A stretch of 64,000 nucleotides of DNA from assembly GCA_944392155.1 (NCBI GenBank), contig CALXVR010000005.1, forward strand, positions 501 through 64,500. The letters run 5' to 3'. The notes below the pieces were generated by a model, which was given only the letters and a program-made list of their open reading frames with translations, was not told the DNA's origin and searched no databases. Below, piece by piece: positions 28,425 to 57,699 of this stretch (position 1 is the first letter of the stretch; each line of letters opens with the position of its first letter). The position numbers were made by a program, and so were the translations under genes. Origin of the DNA: an uncultured Alphaproteobacteria bacterium. Lineage in GTDB: Bacteria; Pseudomonadota; Alphaproteobacteria; RF32; CAG-239.

Positions 28425-28583
28425 GGAGGGGCCGTCTCAGCCGTATAATGACATTCTTATCGAACCGCTTCTCACAAAGTGGGTGCCATATAATTAAACC
28501 AGGGTCTAAACAGTGACAGCTCCCTAAATAAAAATGTTGGCTCGGAAGATCTGCGGAAACAACGCACCGGACAGCTCGCCTCC
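28425..28583 (-). ncRNA. ssrS: 6S RNA
   Basis: Lies directly downstream of zapA; ends pair (GGAGG/CCTCC); alphaproteobacterial 6S motifs GGTGCGTTGTTTCC, GGGAGCTGTC and ATGGCACCCAC. Confidence 0.85.
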
Positions 28584-47980: not shown

Positions 47981-48727
47981 ATGGAAAATTTTAATAAGGT
48001 ATTCCGCACTGCGGACAACGTGGTATTTACTAGAGTTAGTGCTAAAGAAGCAGAGACATTTGTAGGAAACTACATAACAGCGATTGACGGAAAAGCCATC
48101 GCTGTTGTGGACGGAAAAGAAGTAGAAATGCCGAAATCATTATTTAATGAGATAGGTGTGCAGTATTTCTTTGTGGACTACAAAGAGCACGGCAAAAAGA
48201 TGCTGCGAAAACACGGTGTCTATGCGGCTGTAAAAACGGAGAAAATCCGCGTGTGGCGGAATGTAAAGCCGGGAGAAAAGCTGACGACTGTGATTGATGG
48301 TTATGTTGAGCACGAAATAGAGCTTGATGAAACCAAGGTTGCCGCTCAAAACGTCATAAAGAATGAGTATTATGCCATTCCCAAAGACGTGCTGGCAAAA
48401 AAATATGAGTTCTCCCATTCAGAGTTTGACTACGACGTATATGTTCCGAAAGGAAATGTAACGTCATATTGGGTCTACTCCGATGTAAACACCTTCGGAG
48501 TGCTCTGGGGTGGACTTGAATTTTTAACCACGCCAATGATAAATATTACAGACTTAAACGACGTTTATGGTTGTAATTATATTGTTTGGTGGGGAAATGA
48601 TGGGAAGCTGGCCTCTTATAAAGTTCTGGGCTACTTCTCGGCAGAAAAATCAGAATTTTATGACGACCAGATGGGCAAACCCAAATCGGTCGCTCAAACA
48701 ACATTCCAGCCGCCACGCGTTGCATAA
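47981..48727 (+). CDS. Hypothetical protein (248 aa), possibly PGDYG-like
   Basis: VKPGEKLTTVIDG...NEYYAIPKDVLAKKYE pattern; followed by a terminator at 48751-48780. Confidence 0.6.
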   Translation: MENFNKVFRTADNVVFTRVSAKEAETFVGNYITAIDGKAIAVVDGKEVEMPKSLFNEIGVQYFFVDYKEHGKKMLRKHGVYAAVKTEKIRVWRNVKPGEKLTTVIDGYVEHEIELDETKVAAQNVIKNEYYAIPKDVLAKKYEFSHSEFDYDVYVPKGNVTSYWVYSDVNTFGVLWGGLEFLTTPMINITDLNDVYGCNYIVWWGNDGKLASYKVLGYFSAEKSEFYDDQMGKPKSVAQTTFQPPRVA

Positions 48728-48849
48728 TGCAAGTGGTTGGAATCACAAAGAAGGGCTCTCGGGAGAGAGCTCTTTTTTTTGTTAAAATTGCTCAATCTTT
48801 TCATAAAGCACTTGCAATAATTTTGAGCTGCGTTTAATCTACCAAGAAC

Positions 48850-49226
48850 AGGCGACCGGATAGCTGCTTTGCGGAAAGGAAAATCCGCCAAAGAGGAAAG
48901 TCCGGGCTTCAAGGAAACAAGATACCGGATAACGTCCGGCCGGAGAAATCCGAGGGAAAGTGCCGCAGAAATATACCGCCTTTTTTTGAAAGGTAAGGTT
49001 GAAAAGGCGAGGTAAGAGCTCACCGCAAAATCGGCAACGGTTTTGGCAAGGTAAACCCTATCTGAAGCAAGACCAAGTTAGGAGGGCTGAGGCTTTATGT
49101 CTTGGTTATACGGAGGGTTTCCACTCCGCTCCAGAGGTAGGTCGCGTTGAGCCGCATAGTAATATTCGGCCAAGATGAATAGCTATCGCGCCGCAAGGCG
49201 TACAGAACCCGGCTTATAGGTCGCCT
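48850..49226 (+). ncRNA. rnpB: RNase P RNA (type A)
   Basis: GAGGAAAGTCCGGGC, GGAAAGTGCC-CAGAAA, GGTAAACCC, GAGCAAG-like segment, ACAGAACCCGGCTTA; P1 AGGCGACC/GGTCGCCT. Confidence 0.96.
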
Positions 49227-49257
49227 AAAAAGTTTTTTTGTTCATAAGGAGTTGCAT

Positions 49258-50106
49258 ATGCAGACGACTATATCAAAATCAGTTCAACTAAACGGCATCG
49301 GTCTTCATTCCGGCTGTAACGTCACTATGTCAATTCTTCCCGCGCCGGCCAATACGGGAATAGTTTTTCGCCGTGTTGATTTGCCGAACAAACCAGAGAT
49401 TAAGGCCTTGTATAGCAATGTTGTTAATACTCAGAATTGCACTTGCTTGGGCGATGCCGAAGGCAATTTGGTTTCCACCATTGAGCATGTAATGGCGGCT
49501 TTATATGTTAAGGGCATAGATAATGCGCTGATAGAAGTCAATAATCAGGAGCTCCCGATTATGGACGGTAGCGGTAAAATGTTTTTTGATGCCTTAAAGG
49601 AAGTTGAACTTAAGGATTTGAGCGCCCCGCGTATGTATCTCAAAGTTAAAAAGGAAGTTTCTTTTACGGATAAAAACGGCAATACGGCAAGCTTAAAACC
49701 GGCCGACAAATTTGCCGTAAATTTTGAGATAGAATTTCCGTCTCAGATTGTCGGACATCAGAAGTTTTCGGGCGAGATTACGCCGGAGGTTTTTGAACAA
49801 AAAATCGCGCCTTGCCGCACTTTTTGTGAAAAATATCAGGTAGACTATCTTCAATCCATCGGTCTGGCCAAAGGTGGCAGCTTAGATAATGCGGTGGTTT
49901 TGGATGGCGAGCAGATTTTAAACCCCGGTGGTTTTCGTGTCAAAAACGAATGTGTCAACCATAAGGTTATGGATGCCATTGGCGATTTGTTCACTTCCGG
50001 ACATCGCATTTTGGGCGAATTAACCGCTTCCAAAACCGGACATTTTCATAACAACGAGCTCTTAAAACTTTTGTTCGCTGACAAATCTAATTATGAATTG
50101 GTATAA
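49258..50106 (+). CDS. lpxC: UDP-3-O-acyl-GlcNAc deacetylase
   Basis: GIGLHSG, STIEHVMAAL, GGSLDNAVV, HKVMDAIGDL; AGGAG RBS before ATG 49258. Confidence 0.96.
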   Translation: MQTTISKSVQLNGIGLHSGCNVTMSILPAPANTGIVFRRVDLPNKPEIKALYSNVVNTQNCTCLGDAEGNLVSTIEHVMAALYVKGIDNALIEVNNQELPIMDGSGKMFFDALKEVELKDLSAPRMYLKVKKEVSFTDKNGNTASLKPADKFAVNFEIEFPSQIVGHQKFSGEITPEVFEQKIAPCRTFCEKYQVDYLQSIGLAKGGSLDNAVVLDGEQILNPGGFRVKNECVNHKVMDAIGDLFTSGHRILGELTASKTGHFHNNELLKLLFADKSNYELV

Positions 50107-50116
50107 GGATGAGAGA

Positions 50117-50863
50117 ATGAAAAAGTTAAAACTTTTTTTGGTCTGCATTTTTTGTTTGGGTTTAACGGTTGGTTGCTCTTCCACCAAAGAGGTGGAAAAG
50201 CCGCAAACCGCAGAGGAGTTGTACAATCAGGCGCATAATGACCTGGACAAGACCTCTTATAAAAAAGCCGCCGAAACTTTTGAAAAAGTTGAGCTGGAAT
50301 ATCCTTATTCCAAATGGGCGACCAAAGCCAAAATCATGGGGGCTTATGCTTATTACAAAGATCAAAAATATGATGACGCTATTTTAAGTCTGGACCGTTT
50401 CATCAAATTTCACCCCGGCAACAAAGACATCGCCTATGCTTATTATCTGAAAGCCCTTTGCTACTATGAGCAAATCACCGGTGTTGAAAAAGACCAAGAA
50501 AACACACGGCTGGCTCTGCAGGCTTTGCGTCAGGTTATCACACGTTTCCCGAATACCGAATATGCCAAAGATGCTTCGCTTAAATTGGAGCTGACTTATG
50601 ACCACTTGGCCGGTAAAGAGATGGAAGTCGGACGTTATTATCTTAAGCAGGGTAATTATCTTTCGGCTTTGAACAGATTTTCGGTTGTGGTCAATGATTA
50701 TCAGATGACCTCGCATATTGAGGAAGCTTTATATCGTCAGGTAGAGATTTATACGATTTTGGGCTTGAGCAAAGAAGCCAATCAGGCTTATCGGGTTTTG
50801 GAATATAACTATCCCAAGAGCAAATGGACCAAAGCCGCCCGCAAGGTGCTGAAAATAAAATAA
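50117..50863 (+). CDS. bamD: Outer membrane assembly lipoprotein BamD
   Basis: Lipobox TVGC, YPYSKWA, DHLAGKEMEVGRYY; lpxC-bamD-recN order. Confidence 0.93.
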   Translation: MKKLKLFLVCIFCLGLTVGCSSTKEVEKPQTAEELYNQAHNDLDKTSYKKAAETFEKVELEYPYSKWATKAKIMGAYAYYKDQKYDDAILSLDRFIKFHPGNKDIAYAYYLKALCYYEQITGVEKDQENTRLALQALRQVITRFPNTEYAKDASLKLELTYDHLAGKEMEVGRYYLKQGNYLSALNRFSVVVNDYQMTSHIEEALYRQVEIYTILGLSKEANQAYRVLEYNYPKSKWTKAARKVLKIK

Positions 50864-50871
50864 GGTAAACA

Positions 50872-52536
50872 ATGCTTCAATCTCTTTCAATTCGCAATGT
50901 GGTTTTAATAGACAAGCTGGATTTGGACTTCAAATCCGGCTTAAGCGTTTTGACGGGTGAAACCGGCGCCGGAAAATCCATTTTGTTGGATTCACTGGGC
51001 TTGGTACTTGGCAATCGGGCGGAAACTTCGCTCATTCGCCAAGGAGAGGATAAGTTGAGCGTAACCGCCACTTTTGAGGTGAAGGATAAGAATAATCCGC
51101 TTTTTGCGCTGTGTGAGGAATATGAGCTTGAGGCGGATGACGAGATAACCATCAAGAGAAGCCTGAATAAAGACGGCAAGGGCAAGATATTTTTCAACGA
51201 CCAACCCATAAGCGCCAAACTCTTAAAAGAGTTGGGCAAATATCTGGTAGAGGTTCACGGGCAGTTTGACAATCAAGGCTTGCTTAATCCCGCCAATCAT
51301 CGCGATGTCTTAGACGCTTATGCCGGATATAAAAATCTTCTGGCAGAGGTAAAGGAAAAATTTGCAAACTACAAAAAAGCCAAAGCCGCAAGGTTAGAGG
51401 CGGAGAATAACGTTGCCAAAGCCAAAAGCGATGAAGATGCCTTGCGCCATTGGGTAGATGAGCTGGAAAAACTAAACCCCGAAAAAGGCGAAGAGGAAAG
51501 CCTGAGCAAAAAGCGTCTGGAGATGATGAACGCCGAAAAAATCATTGAGAGCTTAAGCTATGCTTACGGAGCTCTGACCCAAGGCGCGGATGTGCAGTCA
51601 GCCATACGTCAGGCGCAATCAGCCATGGACAAGGCTAATAGCTTGGTAGAAGGTAAATATGACGACATTGTCAATATGCTGGAGCAGGCTTTGATAGATG
51701 TGAACGAGGCCGTCAATGAGTTGGAGGAGGCTTCGCAAAACGTGAGCTTAAACCAAAACGAGCTGGAAAATATTGAGAGCCGCTTGTTTGCTTTAAGAGG
51801 TTTGGCGCGCAAACATCAAACCACCATTGATGACTTGCCGGATGTTTTGGCAGATTTTAAGCAGAAATTGGCAACCATAGAGTTAGGCGAGGAGGGTATA
51901 AACGAACTCCGTCGCGCCGAAGAACAAGCTAAGACAGATTATATCAAGTCGGCAACGGAATTAAGCTCGCGCCGCAAGGCTGCGGCATTGCAGCTGGACA
52001 ATCAGGTTATGGCTGAGTTGCCGCCGTTGAAAATGGAAAAAGCTCGCTTTGTAACCATTGTTGAAAAATTAGACGAGAGCGCTTGGAACGAGAGCGGTTT
52101 TGACAATGTTTATTTCACGGTTGCCACCAACCCGAACTCGCCGCAAGGTCCGATTAACAAAATAGCCTCAGGCGGTGAGCTGGCCAGATTTATGTTGGCC
52201 TTAAAGGTTAACTTGGCACAAAGCTCATCTGTTTCTACCATGATTTTTGATGAGGTTGATGCCGGTGTCGGCGGAGCCACGGCTCAGGCAGTGGGCGAAA
52301 GGTTGGCCCGCTTGGCGCATGATGTTCAGGTCTTGGTTGTAACCCATTCTCCGCAAGTCGCCTCACGCGGCAATCATCATTTTAAGGTGGAGAAAAATAC
52401 GGTCGAGAACATAACCACCACCAAAGTTCGTGAGTTAAACGACATTGAACGGCATGAGGAAATCGCCCGTATGCTTGCCGGAGAAAAAATCACCGATGAA
52501 GCAAGAGCGGCAGCCAGAGTTTTAATCGGGGCATAG
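50872..52536 (+). CDS. recN: DNA repair protein RecN
   Basis: TGETGAGKS, EVHGQ, ASGGELARFMLALK, FDEVDAG. Confidence 0.96.
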   Translation: MLQSLSIRNVVLIDKLDLDFKSGLSVLTGETGAGKSILLDSLGLVLGNRAETSLIRQGEDKLSVTATFEVKDKNNPLFALCEEYELEADDEITIKRSLNKDGKGKIFFNDQPISAKLLKELGKYLVEVHGQFDNQGLLNPANHRDVLDAYAGYKNLLAEVKEKFANYKKAKAARLEAENNVAKAKSDEDALRHWVDELEKLNPEKGEEESLSKKRLEMMNAEKIIESLSYAYGALTQGADVQSAIRQAQSAMDKANSLVEGKYDDIVNMLEQALIDVNEAVNELEEASQNVSLNQNELENIESRLFALRGLARKHQTTIDDLPDVLADFKQKLATIELGEEGINELRRAEEQAKTDYIKSATELSSRRKAAALQLDNQVMAELPPLKMEKARFVTIVEKLDESAWNESGFDNVYFTVATNPNSPQGPINKIASGGELARFMLALKVNLAQSSSVSTMIFDEVDAGVGGATAQAVGERLARLAHDVQVLVVTHSPQVASRGNHHFKVEKNTVENITTTKVRELNDIERHEEIARMLAGEKITDEARAAARVLIGA

Positions 52537-52651
52537 CTCTTGCATTAAAGGGCAAATTGCCTTATATCAATCTCAAATATTATCATTTTATAAATAAATT
52601 TATGCTATTTTCACATTAAATTCAGATTCTTATAAGAAAGAGGAAAAGTAA

Positions 52652-53659
52652 ATGACAAAAATTGCAGTTGTCGGCGTAATGGAAAGTGTCGGCAGAGAAA
52701 TTTTGAGCTTCTTGGAAGCGGATGGTATTAAAGCTAAAGATGTTTTTGCGCTGGAACCCAAATGCCCCTTGGGAAATCAGGTATCTTACGGCGAAGATGA
52801 TGAGTTAGATGTTTTAAACTTGGATGATTTTGATTTTTCCAAGACCGATGTCGTTATTTTTACAGGCAATGCGGAGACCTCCAAACGCTTTGTAAAAAAA
52901 GCGGCGCAGCATGCCAAGGTCATAGATTGCACGGATGCTTTTTTTGCCGAGCCAGATGTCCCGATGATTATTGCCGGTTTGAATGATGAGCAGATAGCTT
53001 CCGCCAAGCACAATATTGTGTCTTTGCCTTCGGCGATGGTAACTCAAATGCTTTTGCCGATAGAAAAGGTTATCAAGAATAACAAGATAAAGCGTATTGT
53101 CGTTTCGGCATATATTTCCGCTTCGGTTTATGGCAAGGACGGAATGGATGAACTGTTCAACCAAACCCGCAAAATTTTTATGAACGAAACTTTGGTTGAT
53201 GACCAACAAGTTTTCCATAAACAAATAGCTTTTAACGTTATTCCGCAAGTCGGCGAGTTCATCGGCGAAGAGACACAATGCGAATGGTCAATGAATGCCG
53301 AAACCAAAAAGATTTTGGGCGGAGATATCAAGGTCCATGCCAACTGTGCGATTGTTCCGGCATTTATCGGCGCGGCACAGTTTGTAAATGTGGAATGCGA
53401 ACAAGATGTAGACGTAGACGCTGTTCGTAGCGATATGAAGTCAGCCAAAGGCATAGTTGTTTTTGACAAGAATGTAGAAGGCGGTTATGTCAGCTTGACT
53501 GATGTTCAGGGCGAAGACGAGATTTATGTCAGCCGCCTGCGTCAGGATGCCTCGGTTGAAAACGGTTTCAGCTTTTGGTCTGTCGCGGATAACTTGCGCG
53601 TCGGCATAGCCAAAAATGCTTTTGAGGTAATGAAACAAATCTTGGCTGAAAAGAACTAA
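52652..53659 (+). CDS. Aspartate-semialdehyde dehydrogenase homolog lacking its catalytic residues
   Basis: Full-length Asd fold (MDELFNQTR, KQIAFNVIP, ETKKIL, ADNLR) but PNC->PSA and GH->GA. Confidence 0.85.
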   Translation: MTKIAVVGVMESVGREILSFLEADGIKAKDVFALEPKCPLGNQVSYGEDDELDVLNLDDFDFSKTDVVIFTGNAETSKRFVKKAAQHAKVIDCTDAFFAEPDVPMIIAGLNDEQIASAKHNIVSLPSAMVTQMLLPIEKVIKNNKIKRIVVSAYISASVYGKDGMDELFNQTRKIFMNETLVDDQQVFHKQIAFNVIPQVGEFIGEETQCEWSMNAETKKILGGDIKVHANCAIVPAFIGAAQFVNVECEQDVDVDAVRSDMKSAKGIVVFDKNVEGGYVSLTDVQGEDEIYVSRLRQDASVENGFSFWSVADNLRVGIAKNAFEVMKQILAEKN

Positions 53660-53681
53660 ACCCTATTAAAGGAAACCTCTG

Positions 53682-56173: not shown

Positions 56174-56244
<71 letters not shown>

Positions 56245-56249
<5 letters not shown>

Positions 56250-56325: not shown

Positions 56326-56355
56326 AAAAAAGCGGTTGAAAATCAGCCGCTTTTT
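56326..56355. terminator. Second hairpin terminator, probably ending ORF 56984
   Basis: A5-AGCGGTTGA-aaa-TCAGCCGCT-T4. Confidence 0.7.
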
Positions 56356-56375: not shown

Positions 56376-56984
56376 TTAAGGGATAGTTTCAAGAAGATTA
56401 TCAACAGCTTCTGTCTGCCTTGAGTTATTTTTGTATTCATACAATGATAAAATTGCATCGTCGCAAAAATGTGATCCAAGCAGATCTACAATATCCCCTT
56501 TTTGTGTTGCAGCCAATTTGCTGACAAAATCTCCGGGAACCCTAAAGGCAACAAAACTTGTGCCAGTTCCTTTAATCAAGCAAAAATAAAAATCTTGCGG
56601 AATATAGTGCCTATTCAAAATCTCAAAAGGCATATGTATAAGCATGATCTCATCAACCGCGTAATCATATACGGCCAAATTTTTGCTCAAGTTTACATTT
56701 TTCCATTTAACGGAAAGGTTTCGGCACTTTTCAACACCCAAAACACGAGATCTCGGATATATGCTGATAAGTGTTACAAGCAATTTATCGCCTTTTTTAG
56801 CTAATAAAAAATTAGATAAATCATTCATCTTTACGGCGCATCTAAAAACCTTGTTGTCCGAGGTTAAGATGTCACAGCAAAAAGGGAATTCTTGGGTGCC
56901 ACAATATTCGCAATGAATTTTTTCAACACAAAACCGCAAATAATATACATTTTCGCTTTTGCTAAAAAAATAAATTGTTTTCAT
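56376..56984 (-). CDS. AT-rich hypothetical protein with an internal duplication
   Basis: Two ...KGD...-ending beta-rich repeats; no family recognised. Confidence 0.6.
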   Translation of the reverse strand: MKTIYFFSKSENVYYLRFCVEKIHCEYCGTQEFPFCCDILTSDNKVFRCAVKMNDLSNFLLAKKGDKLLVTLISIYPRSRVLGVEKCRNLSVKWKNVNLSKNLAVYDYAVDEIMLIHMPFEILNRHYIPQDFYFCLIKGTGTSFVAFRVPGDFVSKLAATQKGDIVDLLGSHFCDDAILSLYEYKNNSRQTEAVDNLLETIP

Positions 56985-57120: not shown

Positions 57121-57699
57121 TTAAGATAGGAAACATATATATAATCCGAGGCCGAGGTAAAAACCAAAGACATATTCACCCCAGTTCCACCCCTCTTTGC
57201 CTAAAGCATAATAATTTTCCAGTTTGGAGCCGAGCCAATAGCAAGGTCCCATTCCCAGCCCCCAAAACATAAAGCTTACGGATTGCGCGGCTAGCCCCAT
57301 TAAAAAAGTCAGAATAAGACCTGTCAAACAAGTTCCGATAAAACCAAATATTTTGGGATATTCACTCAGGTAGACCACATTCCCTTTGACGGAAATGCGT
57401 AGCGGCATGAGCAAATCATCAATCAATTCGCATTCCTTATCAACATTTGGGTCAACCTCTTTGCCGTTATAAATGCGTGAGGCATAAACACCCCAGCCAT
57501 AAAGCTGATAACCTGCATAAGCAGCTACAAAAGTTGTTAAGGCCAAATCAAAAGAGAAGCCTTCCGCTAAACAAATAATAATACTGAAGAAGACCGCATA
57601 CCAAATTTTGTTAAGCGGCAATTTTTTGTTGCCGAAACGTAATCCGCCGCGGACTCTCCACAGAAAGGAAGAGATAAATGTCACCAATACAATATACAT
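57121..57699 (-). CDS. Multi-pass membrane hypothetical protein
   Basis: Several TM segments, Gly/Trp-rich (LWRVRGG, GWNWGEYVFG). Confidence 0.7.
   Translation of the reverse strand: MYIVLVTFISSFLWRVRGGLRFGNKKLPLNKIWYAVFFSIIICLAEGFSFDLALTTFVAAYAGYQLYGWGVYASRIYNGKEVDPNVDKECELIDDLLMPLRISVKGNVVYLSEYPKIFGFIGTCLTGLILTFLMGLAAQSVSFMFWGLGMGPCYWLGSKLENYYALGKEGWNWGEYVFGFYLGLGLYICFLS

Follow-up and report, generated by a model that had tools for sequence, protein, structure and literature searches.

AsdX, an aspartate-semialdehyde dehydrogenase pseudoenzyme encoded next to an MscK-like channel gene in an order of uncultured Alphaproteobacteria

Introduction

What can a homolog of aspartate-semialdehyde dehydrogenase (Asd) do once its catalytic residues are gone, and why would a genome keep it? 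The question is raised by a gene, here designated asdX, in a window of 64,000 nt (by window we mean the whole stretch of DNA analyzed) from an uncultured alphaproteobacterium, whose assembly of 1.63 Mb is scored as 100% complete. The relatives of this host are uncultured Alphaproteobacteria of the gut and the rumen, among them Candidatus Scatocola, which NCBI places in Rhodospirillales incertae sedis; the order of the asdX-bearing genomes is probably the GTDB order RF32.

Results

AsdX lacks the Asd active site in a fold that is predicted to be intact

The asdX ORF is uninterrupted and its product matches the two Pfam domains of semialdehyde dehydrogenases, the N-terminal (PF01118, 45 bits) and the dimerisation domain (PF02774, 121 bits). 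Among the NCBIfam models, it scores above the cut-off of NF011456 (262 vs. 223 bits) and below those of TIGR01296, or asd_B (233 vs. 324 bits), and of the USG-type models NF005957 (174 vs. 273 bits) and NF004224 (162 vs. 284 bits). The score above the NF011456 cut-off is why databases call AsdX an Asd.

Residue-by-residue alignment of AsdX to Vibrio cholerae Asd2 (2qz9) and Porphyromonas gingivalis Asd (8juo), together with the translation, bore out all the motif substitutions listed in an earlier sequence-only reading of this DNA. The dinucleotide loop GATGxVG is G8-V-M-E-S-V-G14, with loss of the middle Gly of GxxGxxG; NPNCST is L125-P-S-A128-M-V, with Ala128 where the nucleophile Cys is expected; TYQS is A153-Y-I-S, with Ile155 for the Gln; RVPVFxGHS is I234-V-P-A-F-I-G-A241-A, with Ile234 for the substrate Arg and Ala241 for the acid-base His; and DNLRKG is D313-N-L-R-V-G. 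Comparison to live sequences revealed two losses that are not in that reading: Phe98 occupies the place of the Arg of DNSSxFR, and Ser213 that of the Lys of EExK. In Asd structures these last two residues bind phosphate, and the Gln of TYQS forms the oxyanion site. The motifs MDELFNQTR (165–173), KQIAFNVIP (190–198) and ETKKIL (217–222), which the same reading had described as well kept outside of the active site, are likewise present.

An AF2 model of AsdX, built from 66 family members, reached a pLDDT of 88.7 and a pTM of 0.87, and superposed on V. cholerae Asd2 (2qz9) with a TM score of 0.91 and an rmsd of 2.2 Å. Considered with the replacement of the active-site residues, the confidence of the model and its superposition suggest that the two-domain Asd fold is intact, as modeled, and that the chemistry is gone. 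The residues for thioester catalysis and for contacts with the substrate, the phosphate and the dinucleotide are all replaced, and the enzymes of the pathway were not found in the host (see below); judging from these sequences, the earlier claim that the protein cannot work by the Asd mechanism appears to be right, and it is close to certain that AsdX is not an Asd enzyme.

AsdX is under strong purifying selection

Substitutions of the same kind were found in the 120 closest database homologs (64–98% identity), all of which lack the Cys, the Arg and the His. Values of dN/dS between asdX and close relatives went from 0.024 (dS 0.38) to 0.044, and the AsdX protein evolves more slowly than the product of the neighboring channel gene. 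The occurrence of the same substitutions in 120 homologs, together with strong purifying selection, indicates that they are due neither to chance nor to sequencing errors. AsdX is, then, a pseudoenzyme that has lost its catalytic residues and has kept its fold under purifying selection. A decaying pseudogene was also considered and was discarded on the basis of the dN/dS values of 0.02–0.04.

We contrasted conservation in 66 members of the asdX family with that in 19 live alphaproteobacterial Asds. The enzyme-invariant positions T10, S36, G73, S95, N125, S129, Q155, G159, E210, R234, H241 and K317 are variable within the asdX family, whereas at 60 scaffold positions both groups conserve one and the same residue. 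Around 20 positions are conserved in the asdX family only and cluster at 205–233 and 271–308, and seven positions, among them N127S, T231N and V233A, are fixed to another residue. As far as alignments can tell, this pattern fits a lost pocket and a newly constrained surface, and not a re-tooled catalytic site.

Residues at the former active site differ among members. At the nucleophile position, 128, each of the 120 homologs has Ala, Ser or Pro; 112 of 121 members have Glu, Asp or Ser instead of the middle Gly of the dinucleotide loop; the former His position, 241, is occupied by C, A, S, N or T, being Cys in a third of the members; the former Gln position, 155, can be T, I, M or S; and the former substrate-Arg position, 234, is variable. 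E211, H229 and E248 are invariant in the 121 sequences, and S127, which stands for a conserved Asn, occurs in 114 of them. An alternative Cys in the active site was what the sequence-only reading held would speak against its view, and the family has no invariant Cys column: C93 is present in 81% of the members, C210 in 54% and C232 in 90%, the latter being replaced by Ser or Phe in some of them. C232 is also conserved, at 85% or more, in the live alphaproteobacterial Asds sampled, where it occurs beside the nucleophile Cys of NPNC.

The asdX locus

The features of the locus are collected in Table 1. Promoter-like sites in the region are no commoner than in shuffled sequence, and the site preceding asdX is therefore only a candidate. 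We found no terminator-like hairpin between asdX and the channel gene. The first strong hairpin downstream is followed by the tail GTGTTTCTTA, with no clean T run, and the tRNA-Thr gene possibly ends the same transcription unit as asdX and the channel gene.

Table 1. Position of asdX, its presumed expression signals and other elements in the 64,000 nt window.
Feature	Position	Strand	Basis
6S RNA	28425-28580	-	
ORF of 248 aa without Pfam match	47981-48727	+	
RNase P RNA, directly upstream of lpxC	48848-49232	+	
lpxC, bamD and recN, in a row upstream of asdX	49252-52536	+	
Promoter-like site TTGCCT, 18 nt, TATCAT (candidate)	52557..52586	+	Consensus scan; in the 115-nt recN-asdX gap
Ribosome-binding site GAGGA, 7 nt before the asdX ATG	52640..52644	+	Sequence read
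asdX, for a 335-aa protein with the Asd fold that lacks the catalytic and NADP-binding residues	52652..53659	+	Translation, Pfam, alignments
Ribosome-binding site AAGGA in the 22-nt asdX-channel spacer	53669..53673	+	Sequence read
MscK/MscM-like mechanosensitive channel gene, 816 aa	53682..56132	+	Pfam PF00924, PF21082; NCBIfam
tRNA-Thr (CGT), 42 nt past the channel gene	56174..56249	+	
Terminator-like hairpin, 13 pairs; first strong one downstream of asdX on this strand	56327..56355	+	
ORF of 202 aa without Pfam match	56376-56984	-	
ORF of 192 aa without Pfam match	57121-57699	-	

From hydrophobicity and conservation profiles, the channel consists of a signal peptide, a periplasmic coiled-coil (approximately residues 23–215) and around ten hydrophobic helices (217–627), followed by the MscS beta and C-terminal domains (629–786). 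Its best NCBIfam match is MscK, which covers the C-terminal third only, with 220 bits vs. a cut-off of 991.

Outside of the pair, the order lpxC-bamD-recN is kept only in close relatives (at least 84% identity, plus one locus at 70%). Conservation of the three ORFs without Pfam matches is limited to the nearest relatives; the one of 192 aa has many hydrophobic stretches.

asdX is paired with the channel gene across the order

The channel gene lies directly 3′ of asdX, in the same strand, in 76 of 80 related genome loci, with a median gap of 4 nt between the open frames; in one apparently unpaired locus among the 80 (L088), the pair spans a contig end. The sequence-only reading did not include this pairing. 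Across the order, comparing by hand the coordinates of both genes, we found that at least 139 of 147 genomes have the pair side by side, among them the representative of the second family and genomes whose asdX copy is as little as 36% identical; five genomes are undecided because of contig ends or unlisted rows. A scan of metagenomes found the pair in 10 of the 11 Cys-less loci with enough flanking sequence. The upstream neighbors of asdX are not conserved, the commonest one being present in 18 of the 80 loci, and no metabolic gene is a conserved neighbor in these loci. Around live asd genes, no MscK-like gene was found within 4–5.5 kb in 20 loci from 20 other alphaproteobacterial families, nor beside live asd in 66 metagenome loci (0 of 86 in all). 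In those 20 families, recN, bamD and lpxC were likewise not found near the live gene.

Exceptions do occur. Both genes are present and unlinked in three species belonging to a single genus, and genome G084, which is 100% complete, contains a channel ortholog (51% identity) without asdX, with a DUF2207-like ORF upstream of the channel gene instead. These cases indicate that the partnership is not obligatory or does not depend on adjacency.

A partial Mantel test with the 32 loci containing murD showed that asdX and channel distances are correlated when murD is controlled for (r = 0.82; permutation p ~0.0005), while the partial correlation of asdX and murD distances, with the channel controlled for, was -0.45; the test is suggestive only, because its one control gene belongs to the same locus and no correction is made for shared phylogeny. 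Among longer proteins we found no natural fusion of AsdX and the channel, the only longer matches being two unrelated Asd fusions.

Several other observations concern the surroundings of the pair. In one genome (G140:C2:300292-303599) asdX and the channel gene are in a single frame with only a TAA between them, a near-fusion that would give 1232 aa if read through. Envelope genes recur around the pair: murD is directly 3′ of the channel gene in 32 of the 80 loci (e.g., L057:5143-6579), and two loci (L083 and L085) have a gene for a class A penicillin-binding protein upstream of asdX. Additionally, the host genome (G000) and many others of the order (e.g., loci L140 and L145-L147) contain elsewhere, not beside asdX, a second MscK-like paralog that is 35–40% identical.

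No asdX copy in the order reaches the asd_B cut-off, and the host has no detectable route to DAP

One Asd-like gene is present in 147 of the 151 species genomes of the order, and none of the copies reaches the asd_B cut-off (114–310 bits vs. 324). G001, the only genome that represents the order's second family, contains an intermediate form, which keeps TYQS, DNLRKG and the phosphate Arg, and has the motif CPNS, an Ile for the Arg and a Glu for the His. Two genomes (G071 and G090) have additional fragmentary Asd matches. In the first of them, a further 304-aa Asd-like ORF (L098, G071:C1:27956-28747, minus strand) keeps the Cys, the Arg and the His, is 25% identical to AsdX and may be a foreign or contaminant gene.

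A second intact asd and the DAP pathway, which the sequence-only reading regarded as telling, were both sought in the host genome: asdX is the only PF02774 match, dapA, dapB and dapF were not found, and no aspartate kinase was above noise. Likewise, neither the host nor any of six genomes of the genus yielded homoserine dehydrogenase (hom) or lysA, and dapA was not found in 61 genomes of the order. Nevertheless, the host has MurE (429 bits; G000:C3:18351-19718, locus L003, outside the window) with the motif DNPR, which we take to mark the ligases that add meso-DAP. From a DAP-type MurE and the DAP-pathway genes not being found, it follows that the cell wall should need DAP that the cell cannot make. 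As for scavenging of DAP-containing peptides through Mpl, no clear mpl was found in the host, where the typed Mur-ligase matches besides murE are murC and murF. This points to a dependency in this bacterium, which has a DAP-type MurE and no detectable route to the DAP of its peptidoglycan.

Origin of asdX and other degenerate Asd copies

The live Asds nearest to AsdX are 40–46% identical, and there are many other Asd homologs with degenerate sites at the level of 50% clusters. Five small alphaproteobacterial genomes (G211, G239, G207, G186 and G245) have a degenerate, Cys-less copy as their only Asd, and dapA was not found in four of them (G211, G239, G207 and G186); larger genomes (G187, G199, G260 and G266) have a degenerate copy beside a live asd. 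The class-wide count took in G182, a genome flagged as unpublished, on which none of our conclusions depends. The neighbors of these degenerate copies from other alphaproteobacterial families (L103-L108 and L111-L114) encode SdhA, a class I tRNA synthetase, an M23 peptidase, ribosomal protein L19, DinB and CTP synthase, and none of these copies has an MscK-like channel gene as a neighbor.

In a FastTree phylogeny, the asdX family (support 1.00) joins the copy from the second family of the order (G001; 0.87), and both then weakly join degenerate second copies from genomes with a live asd, outside the clade of alphaproteobacterial Asds; this topology does not separate long-branch attraction from true old paralogy. 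From sequence comparison, asdX could have originated either by decay in place or from an old paralog, both being compatible with the tree. The proposal of the sequence-only reading, a direct derivation from the alphaproteobacterial Asd type, is therefore one of two options: the best live relatives reach only 40–46% identity, and the position of the family outside that clade does not agree with it, unless long-branch attraction is responsible.

Discussion

The almost constant position of asdX directly before the channel gene suggests that AsdX probably serves the channel and not metabolism. The explanation that we favor, tentatively and with not quite an even chance of being correct, is that AsdX is, by analogy with KefF and KefG, a non-catalytic ancillary partner of the MscK-like channel, with asdX co-transcribed with the channel gene and AsdX binding to its product. 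The protein, retained in an order of gut Alphaproteobacteria with small genomes, keeps the Asd fold and would neither bind NADP(H) nor convert aspartyl-phosphate to the semialdehyde; AsdX and the channel would be made from one two-gene unit, and AsdX would act as a soluble, cytoplasmic ancillary subunit, be it a regulator, a stabilizer or an assembly factor. A shared transcript, physical contact between AsdX and the channel, and any influence on its gating are presumed here. A further reading, only a little less likely, is that a dehydrogenase formerly involved in amino acid biosynthesis was taken over as a cytoplasmic subunit dedicated to an MscS-family channel and became fixed across the order.

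The main rival to a channel partner is an Asd scaffold with a second role, independent of the pathway and unrelated to the channel, such as a protein-protein interaction coming from the live Asd or from an old paralog, in which case the order of asdX and the channel gene would be due to operon hitch-hiking in compact genomes. The presence of a sole degenerate Asd, with unrelated neighbors, in other small genomes does point to a reason for keeping the scaffold that does not involve the channel, as do the grouping of degenerate copies found beside a live asd (G187, G199, G260 and G266) with the asdX family in the tree, the channel without asdX in G084 and the three species with unlinked genes. 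Hitch-hiking, however, is difficult to reconcile with an adjacency that persists from 36 to 98% identity while all other neighbors change, and a channel-independent role with the lack of pairing at the 86 live-asd loci and with asdX distances that co-vary with those of the channel and not of murD; we consider this rival rather unlikely.

A channel partner could also be a ligand sensor, with the old pocket binding an amino-acid-like or nucleotide ligand and coupling metabolic state to gating. This variant shares the pairing evidence and is consistent with the invariance of the Glu that in live Asd holds the amino group of the substrate; it is nonetheless improbable, since the pocket residues vary within the family, and hydrophobic or small residues stand in for the carboxylate Arg and the two phosphate ligands. 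Variation of this kind, at the former Cys, Arg, His and Gln positions, is also unlike a catalytic site, and argues against a new enzyme acting on another substrate through residues of the old cleft (Glu211, His229, Ser127, Cys93, Cys210 and Cys232). The invariance of Glu211 and His229 and the near-invariance of Ser127, together with the Cys that the USG-1 structure has at the position of Ser127, would favor such an enzyme; but the dinucleotide loop has lost its middle Gly in most members, the remaining NADP contacts vary and no metabolic gene is kept nearby, and we attach equally little probability to it. Finally, it is hardly credible that asdX is a relic about to be lost, or that AsdX still works as an Asd through an unrecognized nucleophile. 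A score above the cut-off of NF011456, a PGAP model, agrees with a working enzyme, whereas no aspartate kinase was found to supply its substrate, and neither dapA nor hom to use its product; a relic is at odds with the low dN/dS and with intact frames in 147 genomes spanning the order. A still-working Asd was rejected because no Cys is invariant and the pathway genes were not found.

Since AsdX scores above the NF011456 cut-off used by PGAP, and at least one homolog is named aspartate-semialdehyde dehydrogenase, metabolic reconstructions could wrongly credit these organisms with an Asd step, a mis-annotation that touches abundant uncultured gut bacteria. asdX also offers a clean, order-wide case of an enzyme scaffold under strong selection where no trace of its pathway was found. 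In the literature we found no paper on an Asd pseudoenzyme, nor on an accessory subunit of MscK or of a bacterial channel of that family; the conserved pairing provides a testable hypothesis on accessory subunits of bacterial mechanosensitive channels.

Comparison with known systems

AsdX has the same length, both Pfam domains and, as predicted (TM 0.91), the fold of short-type Asd (asd_B or Asd2; TIGR01296, NF011456; 2qz9/2r00), with which it has in common around 60 scaffold positions; live enzymes of this type are 31–46% identical to it. Unlike them, AsdX lacks the Cys, the His, the Arg, the phosphate ligands, the oxyanion Gln and an intact GxxGxxG, no pathway genes were found in its genome, and the channel gene is its fixed neighbor.

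The sequence-only reading also likened AsdX to USG-1/Usg of Gammaproteobacteria (NF005957, NF004224), homologs with the Asd fold whose function is unknown. The comparison is apt. As in AsdX, the substrate Arg and the His are missing from the Pseudomonas aeruginosa USG-1 structure 2hjs (IQAPVFFGD), where the canonical nucleophile position is not a Cys either; however, 2hjs retains GATGSVG, an intact NADP loop, and a Cys one residue early (SPCA), whereas AsdX has GVMESVG and a Ser (LPSA), and is closer to the asd_B models than to the USG-type ones, whose cut-offs it does not reach. Other degenerate alphaproteobacterial Asds share with AsdX the fold, the replacement of the Cys and usually of the Arg and the His, and intact genes, but differ in having no MscK-like neighbor.

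The closest parallel in gene arrangement is found in KefF and KefG, the subunits of KefC and KefB, respectively. Each of the genes kefF and kefG precedes that of its transporter, with an overlap of a few bases, and some lineages do not have them (PMC10224563). These proteins differ from AsdX in being flavodoxin-like quinone reductases that are still active and contain FMN, and in their partner, an antiporter with a KTN domain instead of a channel of the MscS family; binding is proven for KefF, and is what we infer for AsdX. As with AsdX, however, each is a soluble protein with an oxidoreductase fold, encoded with minimal spacing immediately 5′ of the gene for a membrane ion-efflux protein, and each is missing in some of the lineages that keep the membrane protein.
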